NCBI GenBank assembly: GCA_945949405.1
Contig: CAMFEP010000002.1
Coordinates: 1-49,794 of the forward strand
Length of the DNA: 49,794 nt
Origin: Kiritimatiellales bacterium
Lineage (GTDB): Bacteria > Verrucomicrobiota > Kiritimatiellia > UBA8416 > JAIOPI01
Reading direction: 5' to 3'
The notes under the pieces were generated by a model that was not told where the DNA came from, ran no database searches, and saw only the letters and a list, made by a program, of their open reading frames with translations. The translations under genes and the position numbers were made by a program. The first letter of the stretch is position 1, and every line of letters starts with the position of its first letter. This document shows, in pieces, positions 147-48,694 of this stretch.

Positions 147-260
147 CGCCCCAATCATCCAATTTTCCAATCCTCCAATCTTCCGCCCCGCCTTCCCCTC
201 CCTTCTCTTTTGACTCCGCCCCCATTTCCCTGAATAATGCCCCGTCTGGAGGACTTGCTG

Positions 261-41344: not shown

Positions 41345-43074
41345 CCACCACCCACCAGCAACCGGCAGCCCCGATTGCGATCATCGGCATCGGCTGCCGC
41401 TTTCCAGGCGCGCCATCGCCGGAAGCCTTCTGGTCCCTGCTGCGCGATGGCACCCATGCCGTGCGCGAAATTCCACCCGACCGCTGGGATGCCGCCGCGC
41501 TCTACGCCCCCTACCTGATGGAGCCCGGCAAAATGAACACCCGCTGGGCGGGCCTGATCGAGGGCATCGACCAGTTCGATCGCAAATTTTTCGGCATCTG
41601 GCCGGATCAGGCCGCGCACATGGATGTGCTGCAACGCCTGCTGCTCGAAGTGTCTTACGAGGCCCTCGAAGACGGCGGCCAGGATCTGAACGCGCTGGCG
41701 GGCACGCCCGTCGGCGTCTTTCAGGGCGTCCCACCGGGCGACTATGGCCGTATGATGCTGGCCAATCCCGATAAAATGGGCCCCTACACGAGCACCGGCG
41801 CGCTCCTGTCCATCTCGGCCAATCGCATCTCCTATCAGTTCGATTTTCGCGGCCCCAGCATCGCGCTCGACACGGCCTGTTCGTCGTCGCTCGTGGCGGT
41901 GCATCTGGCCTGCCAGAGCCTGCGCGCCGGGGAATGCACCATGGCCCTCGCCGGCGGCGTCAATGCGATCCTCTTTCCGCCGCTCTCCGTCAGCCTCACC
42001 AAGGCCGGCGCGATGTCGCCCGACGGCTGTTGCCACGCCTTCGATGCCGCGGCCAACGGCTATGTGCGCGGCGAGGGCGTGGGCGTCGTGCTTTTAAAAC
42101 CCCTCGACGCAGCCCTGCGCGATGGTGATCGCGTTCACGCCGTGATTCTGGGCACCGCCGTGAATCAGGACGGGCGCACGAACGGACTGACCGCGCCAAA
42201 CCGCTGGGCCCAGGAGGAGGTCCTGCGGCGGGCCTGCGCGAGCGCCGGTATCAACCCCGCCGACGTGCAGCACGTCGAGGCGCACGGCACCGGCACCCTC
42301 TTGGGCGACCCCATCGAAGCCCTGGCGCTGGGCGCGGTGCTGAAACCCGGTCGCGCACCGGATGCGCCCTGCCGCATCAGCTCAGTCAAAACCAACATCG
42401 GACACCTGGAAACCGCCGCGGGCGTGGCCGGCCTGATCCGCGTGGCGCTCGAATTGCGCGAGCGCACCTTCACGCCCATGCTGCATTTTAAAACGCCCAA
42501 CCCGCATATCGATTTCGATGCGCTCGGTCTGGCCGTGCAGCGCCGCTGCGAACCCTGGCCTGCACCGCCGAACGGTGCGCGCCGCCTTGCAGGTATCAGC
42601 TCCTTTGGTTTTGGCGGCACGAATTCGCATGCGGTTCTGTCCGAGGCGCCGCCCAGTCCTCCCGTTCCTCCGCGCCCGGCAGGGCCTTACCTGCTGCCCC
42701 TCTCCGCCAAATCGCCTGCCTCGCTGCGCGCCCTCGTCTCCGCCTATCGCGCGGCCTGTTCCACCGTCCGCGTCGACGAACCCTACGACTACTGCTATAC
42801 CGCCGCGCGACGTCGCACGCATTTCTCCCAGCGCGCCGCCTTCGTTTTCACGACGCAACCAGAACTACTACAGCAACTCGACGCCTGGCTGGAAGGCCGT
42901 GTGGCAACATCCGCCACGCCCCTCGCCGCCGCAGAAGCCTATCGCAACAACCAGCCCGTCGATTGGTCCACCTGCTTCCCCATCACCGTGCCTCCCGCGC
43001 CCCTCCCACACTACCCCTGGGACCACGAGCGTTGCTGGTGGGGCGAAACCGAAAGTGCCACCAATCGGCGATAG
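41341..43074 (+). CDS. Stand-alone PKS-type ketosynthase with vestigial KS-AT linker (no AT)
   Basis: IAIIGIGCRFPGA, DTACSSSLVAVHLA (Cys), VEAHGTGT and NIGHLETAAG (His, His). The ~118-aa tail runs from LLPLSAKSPASLRAL to LPHYPWDHERCWW with no GHSxG acyltransferase core. GTG 41341 overlaps the ACP stop as GTGA; an ATG at 41245 is the alternative. Confidence 0.88.
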   Translation: MTTTHQQPAAPIAIIGIGCRFPGAPSPEAFWSLLRDGTHAVREIPPDRWDAAALYAPYLMEPGKMNTRWAGLIEGIDQFDRKFFGIWPDQAAHMDVLQRLLLEVSYEALEDGGQDLNALAGTPVGVFQGVPPGDYGRMMLANPDKMGPYTSTGALLSISANRISYQFDFRGPSIALDTACSSSLVAVHLACQSLRAGECTMALAGGVNAILFPPLSVSLTKAGAMSPDGCCHAFDAAANGYVRGEGVGVVLLKPLDAALRDGDRVHAVILGTAVNQDGRTNGLTAPNRWAQEEVLRRACASAGINPADVQHVEAHGTGTLLGDPIEALALGAVLKPGRAPDAPCRISSVKTNIGHLETAAGVAGLIRVALELRERTFTPMLHFKTPNPHIDFDALGLAVQRRCEPWPAPPNGARRLAGISSFGFGGTNSHAVLSEAPPSPPVPPRPAGPYLLPLSAKSPASLRALVSAYRAACSTVRVDEPYDYCYTAARRRTHFSQRAAFVFTTQPELLQQLDAWLEGRVATSATPLAAAEAYRNNQPVDWSTCFPITVPPAPLPHYPWDHERCWWGETESATNRR

Positions 43075-43140
43075 TCATCGTCGTTATCCACCACCTCTCC
43101 GTGCCTCCGTGTCTCCGTGGTGAATCCGAATTGGCCCGCC

Positions 43141-43857
43141 TTACCGAAACACCTCCCCACCCACCACCGCCAGCCGCGCCGGAAACAGCGTCTCAACCCG
43201 CGCCCCGGAGCCGGCCGTCCCGGCCGGTGAACTTGAGCCGGCCATCCCCGCCGGTACGCCTGCCGGCAGCAACGCCTCCAACTCACTTTTCAAAAAACCC
43301 TTGCGCACGGAAAGCTGTCCATCCGCCAACGCAAAACTGCGCCGAAAAAACAAACCGTTCAACAGCGTCACGCCCATATAGGCAAAGGCCCCGCGCCGGA
43401 TGTCCGCCAGCACATACCCGCGCGCGGCCACATCCCGCACACGCGCCAAAATCGGGCGAATCGCCTCGTCCGGCAGATGATGCAAAAAATGATTCGCGAA
43501 CACGTAGTCCACGGGTCCGAACCGCGCCAGTTCCTCCGCCCCCGCGCACACCACTGTGAGCCCCTCCTCGCGCGCCCACCGGCGTTGCGCCCACGCCACC
43601 GTGCGCGCGTCGCTATCCAGCGCCGTCACGCGCAATCGCAACCCGAGTTGCCGGCTGCGCTGCAGCAACCAGGCCGGGATATCGCATCCACCGGCGCCAA
43701 GATCAACAAGGTGGTATTCCCGCTCCGGAGCGTCGCGCATGTCCCGCAGCACCGTGCGCGCCAGCAGCGTGCGATAGCGTGACACAAGCCGGTTGATCCC
43801 GCCAAACTGCGCGATCGTGCGCAACAGCATCGCCTCGTCGCAATCCACCGCATCCAT
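43141..43857 (-). CDS. Class I SAM-dependent methyltransferase
   Basis: Motif I YHLVDLGAGGCD, followed by ALDSD and FANHFLHHL. Start is uncertain: ATG 43857 (MDAVDCDEAM), GTG 43905, or ATG 44034 inside the octamer array. Confidence 0.7.
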   Translation of the reverse strand: MDAVDCDEAMLLRTIAQFGGINRLVSRYRTLLARTVLRDMRDAPEREYHLVDLGAGGCDIPAWLLQRSRQLGLRLRVTALDSDARTVAWAQRRWAREEGLTVVCAGAEELARFGPVDYVFANHFLHHLPDEAIRPILARVRDVAARGYVLADIRRGAFAYMGVTLLNGLFFRRSFALADGQLSVRKGFLKSELEALLPAGVPAGMAGSSSPAGTAGSGARVETLFPARLAVVGGEVFR

Positions 43858-43923
43858 CGCCTCCGCCACCCAGATGCGCTTCGAAAAATCAGGCAACCCC
43901 AACACGCGTCCCTCTTTGTCCCA

Positions 43924-44059
43924 GTCCCACAGTCCTACTGTCCCACAGTCCCACTGTCCCACTGTCCTACCGTCCCACAGTCCCACTGTCCTACCGTCCC
44001 ACAGTCCCACTGTCCTACCGTCCCACTGTCCCATTGTCCTACGGTCCTATTGTCCTACC
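43924..44059. repeat. Tandem octanucleotide array, 17 units of GTCCYAYN
   Basis: Read directly: gtcccaca gtcctact gtcccaca gtcccact gtcccact gtcctacc and so on. Two exact 24-nt super-units lie at 43972..43995 and 43996..44019, with a 1-mismatch copy before them. The array contains the FMO stop and ATG 44034. Confidence 0.9.
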
Positions 44060-45207
44060 ATCCCAAACTTCCGCGCAACCCACCTCCGCATGGTCCTCCC
44101 CAACAACACCCGCGCGATAAACTGACCACGCAGCCACGACGCCACCCGCCCCCTGCGCGTCCCCAGCCACATCCCCCGCGTGGCCAGCCGCGCCGATGCA
44201 TGAAACGCTTTCCGCCGCACCCGATCATATTCCCTCAACTGCCGTTCAACCTCCGCACCAAGCACCCCACCACCAAGCACCTTCCCCAGCACGTCCGATA
44301 AATACGCCGCATCGCCAAATCCAATATTCATTCCCTGCCCGCCAATCGGGCTCATCACATGCGCCGCATCGCCACACAGCACCACCCGCCCGCGAAAATA
44401 CCGCGCACACACGAACTGGCTGACACGAAACGGACTTTCGAATTGCTTGCTCCGGCCCGCCAGATCAATCCCCGACCGCACGCGCACCAGCGCTGCCATA
44501 AAATCCCCCGGCGGTTCGCGCATGTACGCATCCGTCATCACGATCCAGCGCCGCCGTCCATCCGGCAGCGGAAAAGCCTCCACTGCCCCCGTCTCCGTGA
44601 AAAACAAATGCGCATCCTGCCCCAGCGCCCCGTCATCATCGAAATCCGCCATCAAAAACGTCTGCCCCAACCGCTTCGTGCGTATCCCAATCCCCGCCAG
44701 CCCGCGCACCGCGCTGTCATGCCCGTCGCTTCCCACCAGAAACCGCCCGGTCAATGCGCCAGCGTCCACATCCCACCCACGCACGCGTACACGTACACGT
44801 TGCGCGTCCTGCTCGAAACCCACAATCTCCACGCCGCGCATCAGCGTCACCGAAGGAAACCGCCGCGCACCCGCTTCGAGAATCTCCAGCGTCACGGCCT
44901 GTGGCAGGCACAGGATGAACGGATACAGCCCGGGTAGCCCGTCAAAATCCAAATCCCCAAGCAGCCGCCGGCGATCATGCACCGCGACGCGCCGCACCGG
45001 CACCCCGCGACGCACGCATTCGGCGTCGAGCCCGACGGTATTCAAAATCGCGAGCGACGGCGGCGTGATGCCAATCGCCATCGAGCGCGCCTCGGGCGCC
45101 GCGCGCCGCTCCATCACCAGCGTCCGCACCCCGCGTTGCCCCAGCAGATTGGCCAGCAACAACCCCACCGCCCCGCCACCCGCAATGATCACGTCGTGCG
45201 ATTCCAT
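44047..45207 (-). CDS. FAD-dependent aromatic-ring monooxygenase (UbiH/PHBH-type)
   Basis: DVIIAGGGAVGLLLANLLGQRG Rossmann motif and GDAAHVMSPIGGQGMNIGFGDA are typical of group A flavin monooxygenases. ATG 45207; the ORF extends to a GTG at 45219. Confidence 0.85.
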   Translation of the reverse strand: MESHDVIIAGGGAVGLLLANLLGQRGVRTLVMERRAAPEARSMAIGITPPSLAILNTVGLDAECVRRGVPVRRVAVHDRRRLLGDLDFDGLPGLYPFILCLPQAVTLEILEAGARRFPSVTLMRGVEIVGFEQDAQRVRVRVRGWDVDAGALTGRFLVGSDGHDSAVRGLAGIGIRTKRLGQTFLMADFDDDGALGQDAHLFFTETGAVEAFPLPDGRRRWIVMTDAYMREPPGDFMAALVRVRSGIDLAGRSKQFESPFRVSQFVCARYFRGRVVLCGDAAHVMSPIGGQGMNIGFGDAAYLSDVLGKVLGGGVLGAEVERQLREYDRVRRKAFHASARLATRGMWLGTRRGRVASWLRGQFIARVLLGRTMRRWVARKFGMVGQ

Positions 45208-45244
45208 CTGTGCGCTCACACCCGATTTCGCCCGAGCCTACTGT

Positions 45245-45327
45245 GACGGCTCGCCAGAGGCTCGCCCTCCAGTTGGCATAACAGACTCTCGATCAAGTAA
45301 ATGGAGGGCGAGGCTGCGCCGAGCCGC
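45245..45327. repeat. Inverted pair of repeat family C (long hairpin), in the PKS/FMO spacer
   Basis: CTCGCCCTCCA (45261..45271) pairs with TGGAGGGCGAG (45302..45312) over 11 bp around a 30-nt loop. An outer GGCTCG/CGAGCC pairing extends it. The right arm is identical to 657..682. Confidence 0.75.
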
Positions 45328-45364
45328 CGCCGGGAATGTGTTTTATGCCAAACGCACACCGCTT

Positions 45365-46519
45365 TCACGATGCGCCCGCGCAGCCACCAGCCGCCACCCC
45401 AACCTCGGCAATCTGGCCCACGTACGACAGCGCGGCGGACTCAACCGTCAGCCCCGGCCCAAACGCCATCGCAATGATCCGATCGCCCGCCCGCGCCTCC
45501 GGCTGCGCCCACAATTCGCGCAAGACGAACAGCACCGTCGCGCTGCTCATGTTGCCGTACTGCCGCAAGACCTCACGCGACGCCGCCACCTGCTCCGGCG
45601 CCAGCCCCAAGCCACTTTGCACCTTGTCCAGAATCGCGCGCCCGCCCGGATGCACCGCCCAGTAGCGCACGCCCTCTAGCCCGGTCTCCTGCGCCCGCAA
45701 CAACGGCGCGACCAATTCATGAATCGCACCACCGATGATCTTCGGCACATAACTCGACAACACAATGTCGAACCCATGATCGCCGATCGACCAGGCCATT
45801 TCGCCCTCGCCCTCGGGAATCACCGTGGACGCAAAGGCCCCCAGCGCCAGCGCGCGCTGCCCCGCGGGCACGGGGCGCGCACTGACAATCGCGCACGCAG
45901 CCCCGTCCGCGAACAACGCGTTGGCCAGCATATCGTCGAGCCCGCCGCGCGGATGCAAATGCAGCGTGCAGAGCTCCAGGCACAGCACAAGCACGACGGC
46001 CTTGGGATCGGCGGCGCAAAACTGCTCGGCCATGCGCAGCGCCGGAATCGCCGCATAGCAGCCCATGAACCCAAGCTGATAGCGCTGCACCGAGGGCCGC
46101 AAGCCCGCCTCCTTGACGATGTAATAATCCGGCCCCGGATTGGCAAAACCCGTGCAGGACACGGTAATTACATGCGTCACGTCCGCAGGCTCAATGCCCG
46201 GACAGGCGGCGAGCGTACGCCGCGCCAGGTCCACCGCGATCGGGCGCGCATGCTTCACGAAAAACGCGTTGCGCTCCCCCGTGCGCGGGTCGTCGATTTC
46301 CCCATCCGCATCCACGCGATACAATTCGCGCGGCGCGGCGCTCATGAAATCGCTCACCACCGAGTGGCGCTTGTCGATGCTGGCGTTGCGATAAATCTGA
46401 TGCAACACGCGCCGCTGGCGCTCCGTGCGCACCCAGTGCTGCATGCGCGCCTCAATGTATTCCTGGCGGTAGGCCGTGCCAGGCACAAACGTCTCGATGT
46501 GGCGCACAAACACGGACAT
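45365..46519 (-). CDS. Type III polyketide synthase (chalcone/stilbene synthase superfamily)
   Basis: 384 aa from ATG 46519 (MSVFVRHIETF). Catalytic contexts TVSCTGFANPG (Cys), YWAVHPGG (His) and YGNMSSATVLF (Asn). GTG 46513 has better SD spacing and is an alternative start. The upstream part of ORF 45365..47041 is not PKS-like. Confidence 0.9.
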   Translation of the reverse strand: MSVFVRHIETFVPGTAYRQEYIEARMQHWVRTERQRRVLHQIYRNASIDKRHSVVSDFMSAAPRELYRVDADGEIDDPRTGERNAFFVKHARPIAVDLARRTLAACPGIEPADVTHVITVSCTGFANPGPDYYIVKEAGLRPSVQRYQLGFMGCYAAIPALRMAEQFCAADPKAVVLVLCLELCTLHLHPRGGLDDMLANALFADGAACAIVSARPVPAGQRALALGAFASTVIPEGEGEMAWSIGDHGFDIVLSSYVPKIIGGAIHELVAPLLRAQETGLEGVRYWAVHPGGRAILDKVQSGLGLAPEQVAASREVLRQYGNMSSATVLFVLRELWAQPEARAGDRIIAMAFGPGLTVESAALSYVGQIAEVGVAAGGCAGAS

Positions 46520-46657
46520 GCCTCCAGTATGACACCGGCAGGATGGGCAACAACTGAAAATTTGGTATGGTCCTCCTGTGCCGCCTCCCGGCGACCTTGC
46601 GTCGCCGGAGGCAAAATTATGGCACCTGCCGCACAAGGCCGCAGGGAGCCACGCCCA

Positions 46658-47623
46658 ATGGAGAACGCCATGCGCCCATTTTTCCGCCTGAAGGCAAATT
46701 TCGACGGCCTCATCGCCACCATGGGTTGGGTCGCCGCCACGGTAACCCTCGCCGGCTTCGCCGGTCGCGCACATTGGCTGCTCGATCTCTGCACGCACTT
46801 TCGCGCCCAATACCTGCTTGCCCTGCTGGCCGCCTCCATCCTGCTCGCGCGCCGCCTCCCGCGCCAGGCCCTGGCCTTCGCGCTGCTCGCCCTGCTGAAT
46901 GCCGCAATCCTGCTGCCCATGTTCCTGCCGCGCGCAACCCCCGCCGCCGGCATCACCCCCGCCATCCGCGCGATGCTGATGAACGTGAACACCTACGACG
47001 GGAGCCCGCCCCGCGTCGCCGCCGCCATCGCGGAATTCCACCCCGACATCCTCGTGCTGATCGAAGTCAGCCCCCTCTGGCTGGAGTCCCTCGCGCCAGC
47101 CCTGACGAATTTTTCGCAGCGCCTCGCCGAACCTCGCGACGACAACTTTGGCATCGCGCTCTACAGCCGCTTCCTATGGACCAACGCCGCCCCACACCTC
47201 ATCGGCGCCGCGGGCGTCCCCACCCTGCGGGCCACCATCGACACACCAGATGGCCCGGTCACCATCATCGCCACGCATCCCGTGCCGCCCGGCGGCGCGC
47301 AATATTCCGCCTGGCGCAATGACCAGCTCGCCCGCCTGCCCTCCCTCGTGCACGCGCCGCCCGCGCCCGTCCTGCTCCTCGGCGACCTGAACACCACCCC
47401 CTGGAATTTCTATTTCAACCGCCTCCTGCGCGACGCCGGCTTTCACGACAGCGCCCGCGGCCGCGGCCTCCACCCCACCTGGCCCGTCGGAGTCCCGCTT
47501 CTCTGGATCCCCCTCGACCATTGCCTGCACAGCCCGGAAATCGCCATCGCCGCCCGCACCGTCGGCCCCGATGTGGGCTCCGATCACTACCCCTTGATTG
47601 TGGACTTTTGCCTGAAAAAGTGA
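46658..47623 (+). CDS. Endonuclease/exonuclease/phosphatase (EEP) family membrane protein
   Basis: N-terminal TM segments, then HPDILVLIEV, LLGDLNTTPW and GSDHYPLIVDF, typical of EEP-family proteins. Possible starts are 46619, 46658 and 46670. The part of ORF 45719..47623 upstream of these is antisense to the PKS gene. Confidence 0.72.
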   Translation: MENAMRPFFRLKANFDGLIATMGWVAATVTLAGFAGRAHWLLDLCTHFRAQYLLALLAASILLARRLPRQALAFALLALLNAAILLPMFLPRATPAAGITPAIRAMLMNVNTYDGSPPRVAAAIAEFHPDILVLIEVSPLWLESLAPALTNFSQRLAEPRDDNFGIALYSRFLWTNAAPHLIGAAGVPTLRATIDTPDGPVTIIATHPVPPGGAQYSAWRNDQLARLPSLVHAPPAPVLLLGDLNTTPWNFYFNRLLRDAGFHDSARGRGLHPTWPVGVPLLWIPLDHCLHSPEIAIAARTVGPDVGSDHYPLIVDFCLKK

Positions 47624-48133: not shown

Positions 48134-48164
48134 GGTCTGAAACCTGAAACCCGAGACTCGGAGG
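48134..48164. repeat. Inverted partner of the 48577..48694 repeats
   Basis: GGTCTGAAACCTGAAACCCGAGACTCGGAGG is the reverse complement of CCTCCG(+7 nt)GGTTTCAGGTTTCAGRCC, which occurs in the tandem units on the other side of the four-helix-bundle gene. Confidence 0.65.
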
Positions 48165-48191: not shown

Positions 48192-48575
48192 TTACTCGGA
48201 AAGTCGACTCTTCACGCGCTTGGCCATCGCAACGAATATCGAAATAAGTTCGTTGGTTTCCGTAGCCAGTGTATGAAGGTCAACGCCGTCGATGCCGCAG
48301 TCTTCATGCAACAATTCCAGCCAGAGCGCGCTCTCGTCAGCTTCTTGTGCGCAGGTCTCGATTTTTGAAATGAATTCCGCGTCACTGCGGGCTCGCGATG
48401 CTTCTCTGTATATGGCCGCCACGGCCGTACCGGATCGCAAAAGCTGCTTTCCCAAAACTTGGACCTCAACTCGATTCTTTGGCAGCGTGCAAAAAAGCCG
48501 AATTACGCCCGACGCATAGGCCTTTGTTCTGGCCCGAAAAGCTTCCTTGCGAGCGCTACCCGATGTTTGATTCAT
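48192..48575 (-). CDS. Four-helix-bundle protein (23S rRNA intervening-sequence protein / Avd family)
   Basis: 127 aa. YASGVIRLFCTLPKN...LGKQLLRSGTAVAAIYREA...FISKIETCAQEADESALWLELL is the characteristic pattern of this family. The gene is visibly more A/T-rich than its neighbours. Confidence 0.8.
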   Translation of the reverse strand: MNQTSGSARKEAFRARTKAYASGVIRLFCTLPKNRVEVQVLGKQLLRSGTAVAAIYREASRARSDAEFISKIETCAQEADESALWLELLHEDCGIDGVDLHTLATETNELISIFVAMAKRVKSRLSE

Positions 48576-48576
48576 G

Positions 48577-48694
48577 ATCCGAACCTCCGGTTTCAGACTT
48601 CATCCTTTCCCCCGATTTTCAGGCTTCAGGTTTCCGCCCTCATCCCTCTGCATCCGAACCTCCGGTTTCAGGTTTCAGGCCTCATCCTTTCCCC
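48577..48694. repeat. Three degenerate tandem units (about 37-43 nt)
   Basis: ATCCGAACCTCCGGTTTCAGACTTCATCCTTTCCCCC (48577..48613); a degenerate middle unit; ATCCGAACCTCCGGTTTCAGGTTTCAGGCCTCATCCTTTCCCC (48652..48694). The last unit supplies the PhyH stop codon. Confidence 0.75.

Follow-up and report, generated by a model that had tools for sequence, protein, structure and literature searches.

A 17-unit octamer array between a monooxygenase and a methyltransferase gene is a typical copy of an unusual, genome-wide repeat and probably not a dedicated switch

We analyzed a 49,794-nt stretch of DNA (hereafter, the window) from a partial genome of the phylum Lentisphaerota (G000; 1.96 Mb, 76% complete), in which a tandem array of 8-nt units lies at the junction of a monooxygenase gene and a methyltransferase gene. 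Both genes follow a type III polyketide synthase gene on the minus strand, and the features at and around the junction, in the direction of transcription, are these:

Lower end at 45365, (-): type III polyketide synthase (PF00195, PF02797), first gene of the polyketide synthase–monooxygenase–methyltransferase row.
44047-45219, (-): FAD-dependent monooxygenase of the UbiH/PF01494 type (PF01494, E 9e-49).
43924-44059, sense on (-): octamer array of 17 units, from Tandem Repeats Finder (TRF), direct sequence reading, unit logo and composition.
44049-44047, (-): TAG stop of the monooxygenase, from a TAGGAC array unit, the third unit from the monooxygenase side.
44034-44032, (-): in-array ATG, the first ATG of the methyltransferase frame, in frame with the monooxygenase stop and the methyltransferase body.
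43909-43915, (-): Shine-Dalgarno-like AGAGGGA, whose GAGG ends 5 nt before GTG 43905.
43141-43905, (-): class I SAM methyltransferase (PF13649), the likeliest gene, with start GTG 43905 and 254 aa.

TRF reported the array twice, once as 43924-44055 with a period of 8 (16.5 copies, score 152) and once as 43924-44047 with a period of 24 (5.2 copies, 92% matches, score 199). Read directly, it consists of 17 plus-strand units GTCCYAYN spanning 43924-44059 (136 nt), among which a 24-nt super-unit recurs as two exact tandem copies and one near-exact copy with a single mismatch. On the mRNA (sense) strand the unit reads T-R-G-G-A-C-N-N, with 46% G and 13% C; GGG is found in 11 of the 17 full units and also in a partial 18th unit, TGGGAC, that adjoins the array at 43923-43918. 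The initial annotation had described the 17 head-to-tail units and the two exact and one near-exact super-units, had placed the monooxygenase stop and ATG 44034 inside the array, and had noted that translation from this ATG would begin with WDGRTVGL-type octapeptide repeats; TRF, direct reading and translation reproduced each of these observations.

The array had no match in Rfam, and its RNA fold energy was ordinary (z = -1.09), this copy having no hairpin, and a structured RNA element was rejected. A promoter or terminator role was rejected as well, since no promoter-like site was found within 43000-47400 and none of the three terminator-like matches lay within the array. A further candidate, a CsrA sponge acting through the repeated GGA motifs, found no support, as CsrA was not detected in the 76%-complete genome. 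TRF and a word search revealed no partner array with GGAC on the plus strand elsewhere in the window. The direct neighbors of the array are the monooxygenase and methyltransferase genes, with no gene of the four-helix-bundle family PF05635 ("23S rRNA IVS protein") at the array; the nearest PF05635 gene, at 48237-48521, is accompanied by a word that differs from that of the array.

The array reaches into the 3' end of the monooxygenase gene. In its database form the enzyme has 386 aa and starts at ATG 45207; its final three codons (VGQ) and its TAG stop are array sequence, and its conserved C-terminal YFAMLTIP motif is reduced to FGM, leaving the ending FGM-VGQ-stop. In an alignment with 102 homologs, 31 residues follow the ASWLR anchor in the window monooxygenase, the homologs having 47 there in the median and 38 at the 5th percentile. 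The truncated enzyme with its array-coded tail is identical on four database contigs. By this comparison, the array has displaced a conserved C-terminal motif of the enzyme, and the TAG of the gene is array sequence as well; such a loss of a motif to repeat invasion is relevant for genome annotation. Gain or loss of a unit had been expected to alter the monooxygenase C-terminus, but changes downstream of the TAG cannot do so. On the minus strand of 44047-44140, the LTIP part of the motif is absent from the monooxygenase and is present in most of the 102 homologs. Read-through fusion of the two enzymes was also considered and rejected: homologous fusions of ~660 aa carry unrelated methyltransferase families, ICMT-like at the N-terminus or UbiE-like at the C-terminus, with no similarity to the methyltransferase of the window.

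The longest open reading frame of the methyltransferase spans 43141-44034 on the minus strand and opens at the in-array ATG, which shares the frame of the monooxygenase stop (the two are 15 nt apart, the ATG lying 12 nt past the stop). A search with the methyltransferase body returned 253 relatives, nearly all of 220–260 aa, and in 106 of 119 aligned homologs at most 12 residues (mode 2) precede the PDF/PDL column. A start at GTG 43905, 18 nt beyond the array end, places four residues ahead of this column, and the distance of 5 nt between GAGG and GTG agrees with the SD-like motifs of this genome, which peak 5–10 nt ahead of starts. Initiation at ATG 44034 would extend the protein by 43 residues of WDGRTVGL repeats, an extension with a counterpart in 0 of the 119 homologs. 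Some initiation may still take place there and give a 297-aa isoform, as AGGA motifs stand 2 and 10 nt ahead of this ATG and two database gene calls use it. The start at 43857 proposed by the initial annotation lies too far downstream, as ATG 43857 is the conserved internal Met of an ELMD motif and a start there deletes the conserved PDFSKR segment; the alternative that it also named, 43905, fits the homologs best. Judged by homology, GTG 43905 is most likely the true start, yielding a protein of 254 aa, and ATG 44034 is a possible minor start that the homologs do not support. The 297-aa and 289-aa forms in databases therefore most probably carry a spurious, repeat-encoded N-terminus, a tempting misreading for annotation.

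Clustering at 90% identity placed the methyltransferase of the window in a group of three, each member from an assembly of its own:

297 aa: contig of the window, 49,794 nt.
289 aa: ENA, 46,009-nt contig.
254 aa: ENA, 7,906-nt contig.

The sole difference between the 289-aa form and that of the window is one missing WDGRTVGL, and in silico removal of one 24-nt super-unit from the window DNA yields the 289-aa form exactly, so that arrays of 17 and 14 units appear to coexist in public assemblies, the 24-nt change keeping the frame. An unchanged array length together with a single substitution and another gene call might also account for the 289-aa form, though less economically. When changes of 8 or 16 nt were simulated, the frame from ATG 44034 closed after 11–35 codons, and a gene caller would consequently choose GTG 43905, as in the 254-aa form. 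The call in the third assembly does start at GTG 43905 and is compatible with an 8- or 16-nt variant, but could equally come from a contig that ends in the array; frame-breaking variants may exist. The repeat is real, and its length differs from one assembly to another. The initial annotation had supposed the tract to be unstable and had proposed comparing unit numbers among relatives and metagenome-assembled genomes; the comparison returned 17 versus 14 units between assemblies, which supports that view, and no array at this junction in a congener (G001, described below).

The word is dispersed through the genome. Counting arrays of at least three units, we found 16 arrays of T-R-G-G-A-C-N-N, of which 12 were solo (more than 350 nt from any PF05635 gene), versus 0 for a reversed-word control; they occupy at least 11 contigs besides that of the window, and the 15 further arrays stand in unique contexts. 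A four-unit pattern of the word matched 104 times in the genome and 0 times when read backwards, which excludes a chance origin of the arrays. This count of the octamer elsewhere in the genome had been called for by the initial annotation, whose fallback reading, a genome-wide simple repeat in an intercistronic spacer, is essentially right. Across 153 units the logo reads T (97%), R, G, G, A, C, a near-random base and then G/T/A, so the hexamer core is ~99% conserved while the two spacer bases are nearly free, and of the 138 intervals between units, 136 measure exactly 8 nt. TAGGAC accounts for 44% of the units; about 55% bear GGG. Favored spacer dinucleotides and super-units (16, 24 or 32 nt) are particular to each array, which indicates local expansion within it. 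A mobile element with conserved ends was rejected because the flanks of the family arrays, when compared, share no sequence.

The sister arrays lie at sites with co-directional genes: pheS-pheT, lysA-dapA, gspE-gspF (gspE-like/gspF-like), before nrdR, and after a response-regulator gene. Nine of 14 family arrays have their upstream end on the stop codon of the preceding gene or at most 19 nt past it, and five of these nine overlap the stop, either supplying it or, on contig C61, incorporating a native TAG. At their other ends, sister arrays stop 17–31 nt before starts fixed by homology (GspF MPTFTY, NrdR MRCPKCG, and the N-termini of PheT and DapA), a pattern matched by the 18-nt gap that separates this array from GTG 43905. 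At the family loci, arrays are often continuous with the following gene in an open frame, and the in-frame position of ATG 44034 therefore carries little weight. The G-rich strand is the sense strand in 10 of 11 classifiable solo arrays. Avoidance of Rho-dependent polarity, with a C-rich sense strand acting as a rut site, was rejected as a general account, as the strand bias across all 7/8-mer arrays is weak (26 vs 16, p = 0.16); Rho is present in the genome, the G-rich strand is sense in seven of eight arrays of ~80 nt or more between aligned genes, and such avoidance may at most account for the preferred orientation.

More broadly, the 1.96 Mb contain 97 arrays of period 7, 8, 14 or 16 (49.6 per Mb), of which 85 lie outside the interior of open reading frames, versus 54 of 137 outside for triplet-period arrays. 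Twelve of the 97 lie at most 300 nt from a contig end where 4.9 are expected, suggesting that these repeats probably fragment the assembly and hence are under-counted. One such array, of CCAATCTT/CCAATCAT units with a period of 8/16, lies at the edge of the window (151-184), and the related AAGATTG heptamer arrays, 12 in the genome, resemble the PF05635 cassette arms on contig C1. On contig C36, gnd has no start between its array and its Rossmann motif and must start at an in-array ATG; it begins MSQSPKVPP-ADIAVVG where the orthologue in a congener (G002) begins MNTS-ADIAVVG. Starts supplied by an array thus do occur in this genome. At least five tandem units of the octamer word were found on at least 120 JGI metagenome contigs with GC of 0.30–0.75 (a count made without a control word, in a scan that may omit records of this genome), indicating that the word is not confined to this lineage.

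Among relatives, the four-unit pattern matched five times in G002 (same genus), twice in G003 (same family) and once in G014 (same order), with 0 matches in G001 (same genus, 91% complete) and 0 in 36 other genomes of the order. As for arrays of period 7, 8, 14 or 16, the 340 kb of G001 contained none and the 400 kb of G003 had a density of 17.5 per Mb, so such arrays can appear within one genus, at about 50 per Mb here versus none in 340 kb of a congener. In G001, whose methyltransferase is 68% identical to that of the window, the monooxygenase-methyltransferase junction has no array: the monooxygenase has a C-terminus ending ...YFAMLTIPGRLKGV, and 48 nt of non-repeat spacer separate its stop from the ATG of the methyltransferase. 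The gspE/gspF junction has a 117-nt non-repeat spacer in G001 and a 22-nt spacer with one proto-unit, a single GGGACGGT, in G002. The same junction in G003 (L146:2000-2407) carries GAAGGAA x4 followed by a bare hairpin whose arms are mirrored GTTATCG / CGATAAC-type heptamers and enclose no gene, which looks like an empty cassette. Also in G003 (L003:1517-1555), five GATTGRGT units lie between the stop of a UbiE-like gene and a methyltransferase ATG, a methyltransferase junction in another genus occupied by another octamer word. In this bacterial family, operon junctions thus act as hot spots for the gain and loss of word arrays, and lineages differ in the word.

The T-R-G-G-A-C-N-N word also flanks a gene. 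All nine PF05635 genes of the genome lie between mirrored short-word arrays, and the arms of one such cassette, on contig C36, consist of the T-R-G-G-A-C octamer. This cassette (C36:433-1023, L149) is laid out as SDR gene, GGAC array, GTCC array, PF05635 gene, GTCC array and gnd, and is orthologous to a cassette in G002. Relatives of the C36 protein keep the arm word at 79% identity (G002), 61% (G018) and 51% (a metagenome contig of 50% GC), and those at 46–54% identity carry related arm words, e.g., CAGACTGC, TAGACTGT and TAGGCTGT. By its word, the array at the monooxygenase-methyltransferase junction is accordingly a solo copy of a repeat that forms cassette arms elsewhere in this genome, and the proliferation of a cassette-arm word as solo arrays in operon spacers is new here. 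Within the window, the PF05635 gene at 48237-48521 (-) lies between mirrored CTGAAAC / GGTTTCA heptamer runs (~48137-48151 and 48664-48679), a word that also occurs as solo arrays on contigs C24, C9, C48 and C107.

One reading of these data is that the solo arrays are partners of the PF05635 cassette, addressed by their word, either through a protein that binds T-R-G-G-A-C RNA or DNA or through GUCC arm RNA that pairs with GGAC arrays in mRNA and directs processing. The enclosure of all nine PF05635 genes by mirrored arrays, the use of the array's own word by a C36 cassette with an orthologue in G002, the persistence of the word or of related words among protein relatives, and a nearly invariant core beside two free spacer bases would all agree with it. 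Yet gene and arms are inherited together, and descent alone would make them co-vary; solo arrays of the word occur in G003 without a close homolog of the C36 protein; G002 has the cassette and no solo arrays in its assembled part; and an adjacent PF05635 open reading frame was present on only two of 80 array-bearing metagenome contigs, many of which end at the array. We regard this reading as doubtful, and its stronger form, in which solo arrays at operon junctions are trans targets of the same-word cassette protein or complementary arm RNA in a dozen or more mRNAs, as slightly more doubtful still. If true, it would amount to a word-addressed post-transcriptional network, give a function to the "23S rRNA intervening-sequence protein" family, and let strain-variable array length tune the response. 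Because co-inheritance alone would produce the co-variation and G003 has arrays without a close relative of the protein, a functional link between cassette and arrays may be taken as a lead, not a finding; the word shared with a four-helix-bundle cassette makes it a concrete, testable lead on how the arrays are maintained.

The initial annotation favored a phase-variable switch in which gain or loss of one 8-nt unit changes the frame between ATG 44034 and the methyltransferase body. Were the methyltransferase translated from this ATG and toggled off and on by single units, a population would alternate between methylated and unmethylated polyketide lipid. Several features are compatible with this: a unit length that is not a multiple of three, an in-frame ATG preceded by AGGA motifs, a tract whose length differs between assemblies, the closure of the long frame within 11–35 codons after simulated 8- or 16-nt changes, and the 254-aa gene call of the third assembly. 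We nonetheless consider the switch very unlikely. The 43-aa repeat extension is without counterpart in the 119 homologs, and with a good start and its GAGG just past the array the enzyme would still be made after a frame change. The single documented length change is of 24 nt and keeps the frame, and since sister arrays have super-units of 16, 24 and 32 nt, the 24-nt unit is no evidence of coding constraint. The sister arrays sit in pheST, lysA-dapA and gspEF and before nrdR, not in surface or contingency genes; open frames from array to gene are common by chance; and congener G001 lacks the array at this junction. Folding of the G-rich sense strand into a G-quadruplex (G4) that modulates transcription or translation at the junction is similarly improbable. 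GGG occurs in most units, 10 overlapping G4 motifs appear in the array if loops of up to 13 nt are allowed, sister arrays on C92, C73 and C101 have at least four consecutive GGGAC units, and a precedent has been proposed for GGGNATC repeats (PMC4692102). However, the canonical motif (loops of at most 7 nt), which some sister arrays do have, is absent from this one; TAGGAC makes up 44% of family units and almost all of those on C56, where a three-tetrad G4 is impossible; and the conserved part is T-R-G-G-A-C, not a G-tract. An origin of the array or its length in short-read assembly can be regarded as exceedingly improbable. The 136-nt tract is near read length, 17 versus 14 units may reflect collapse in one assembly, and arrays are enriched near contig ends, but a repeat-containing product is encoded in two independent assemblies, four contigs agree exactly in the monooxygenase and its array-coded tail, and the word recurs in 15 further arrays that stand in unique contexts.

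The array is a copy of a lineage-specific, genome-wide family of an 8-nt word, and we consider it likely that it is an intercistronic spacer and not an on/off switch. On this account it would fill the untranslated spacer of two genes that we infer to be co-transcribed, with its G-rich strand in the mRNA, and would have arrived or expanded after the species split from its congener, replacing roughly the last 7–16 monooxygenase codons, the old spacer and the old methyltransferase leader. A TAGGAC unit now provides the TAG of the monooxygenase, and the methyltransferase would start 18 nt on, at GTG 43905, with a ribosome-binding site of its own. The array presumably grows and shrinks by slipped-strand mispairing or unequal recombination, for which the 24-nt super-unit offers the register of highest identity. 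Changes in length would therefore do no more than move the two cistrons nearer together or farther apart; if expression is affected, the response would be graded, through translational coupling, mRNA processing or mRNA stability, and would not be a frame switch.

The array is thus a typical copy of an unusual repeat and probably not a switch dedicated to this biosynthetic operon. The remaining interest lies in what neutral slippage leaves unexplained, namely why the core is conserved, why a single word recurs at a dozen sites and why one strand is preferred; in particular, a near-perfect core beside free spacer bases is not predicted by neutral slippage alone and hints at selection or a sequence-specific process. 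The family also shows that dispersed arrays can replace the ends of genes and provide them with stop or start codons.

Among known systems, simple-sequence contingency loci such as the heptanucleotide tract upstream of hmw1A in Haemophilus influenzae (PMC8262952, PMC12721329) share with our array a tandem tract near a gene boundary that is variable in length and has a unit that is not a multiple of three (here, 17 units of 8 nt). Unlike the tract of a contingency locus, which lies in an open reading frame or between promoter elements, this one lies between a stop and a homology-supported start in an operon, 18 nt before GTG 43905 and with no promoter-like site; and where contingency loci concern surface, host-interaction or restriction-modification genes, the gene here encodes a biosynthetic enzyme of a type III polyketide synthase lipid operon, and the word also occurs in housekeeping operons. 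The genome paper of Geobacter metallireducens classes mirrored octamer arrays as "global regulator binding sites" and records GGGACCG x4 at 49 sites (PMC2700814). The mirrored arrays look like the same design as the PF05635 cassette arms, with which our array shares the word of the C36 cassette in the same genome, the 8-nt period and a site at an operon junction. Unlike those arms (about 5–13 units), it is solo, has 17 units, and has neither a PF05635 gene nor a mirrored, reverse-complementary partner arm nearby.

The closest published kind comprises the cyanobacterial short tandemly repeated repetitive (STRR) sequences and the heptamer repeats of Xanthomonas and Nostoc, the latter being the best match. 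STRR are tandem units of ~7 bp in spacers such as hupS-hupL, for which roles in transcript stability or translational coupling have been suggested (PMC2670836). Our array likewise consists of tandem short units in an intercistronic spacer but is an octamer from another phylum, has no hairpin, and overlaps a coding 3' end. In Xanthomonas and Nostoc, G-rich heptamers (GGGAATC / GGGGA(C/T)T) occur genome-wide between aligned open reading frames with a non-coding bias (Rehm et al. 2015; PMC4692102). Their unit number varies between close relatives, they are transcribed, and mostly ordinary metabolism genes adjoin them; the authors considered phase variation improbable and assigned no function (PMC4692102). 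The family described here differs in a unit of 8 rather than 7 nt, in arrays that reach 17 units with no four-unit preference, in a conserved hexamer T-R-G-G-A-C with only about 55% of units bearing GGG and no canonical G4 in our array, where the heptamers offer at least four G-tracts, in its phylum, and in sharing its word with four-helix-bundle cassette arms. In common with them, it comprises many copies of one short G-rich word, mostly in non-coding DNA (16 arrays, 12 solo), at the stops of aligned genes (9/14) with the G-rich strand as the coding strand (10/11), beside ordinary metabolic neighbors, and its unit number and presence vary among relatives (G001, G002, G003 and the second assembly). 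Dispersed G-rich 7–8-nt arrays at gene ends are a poorly understood class, which this family extends to Lentisphaerota.
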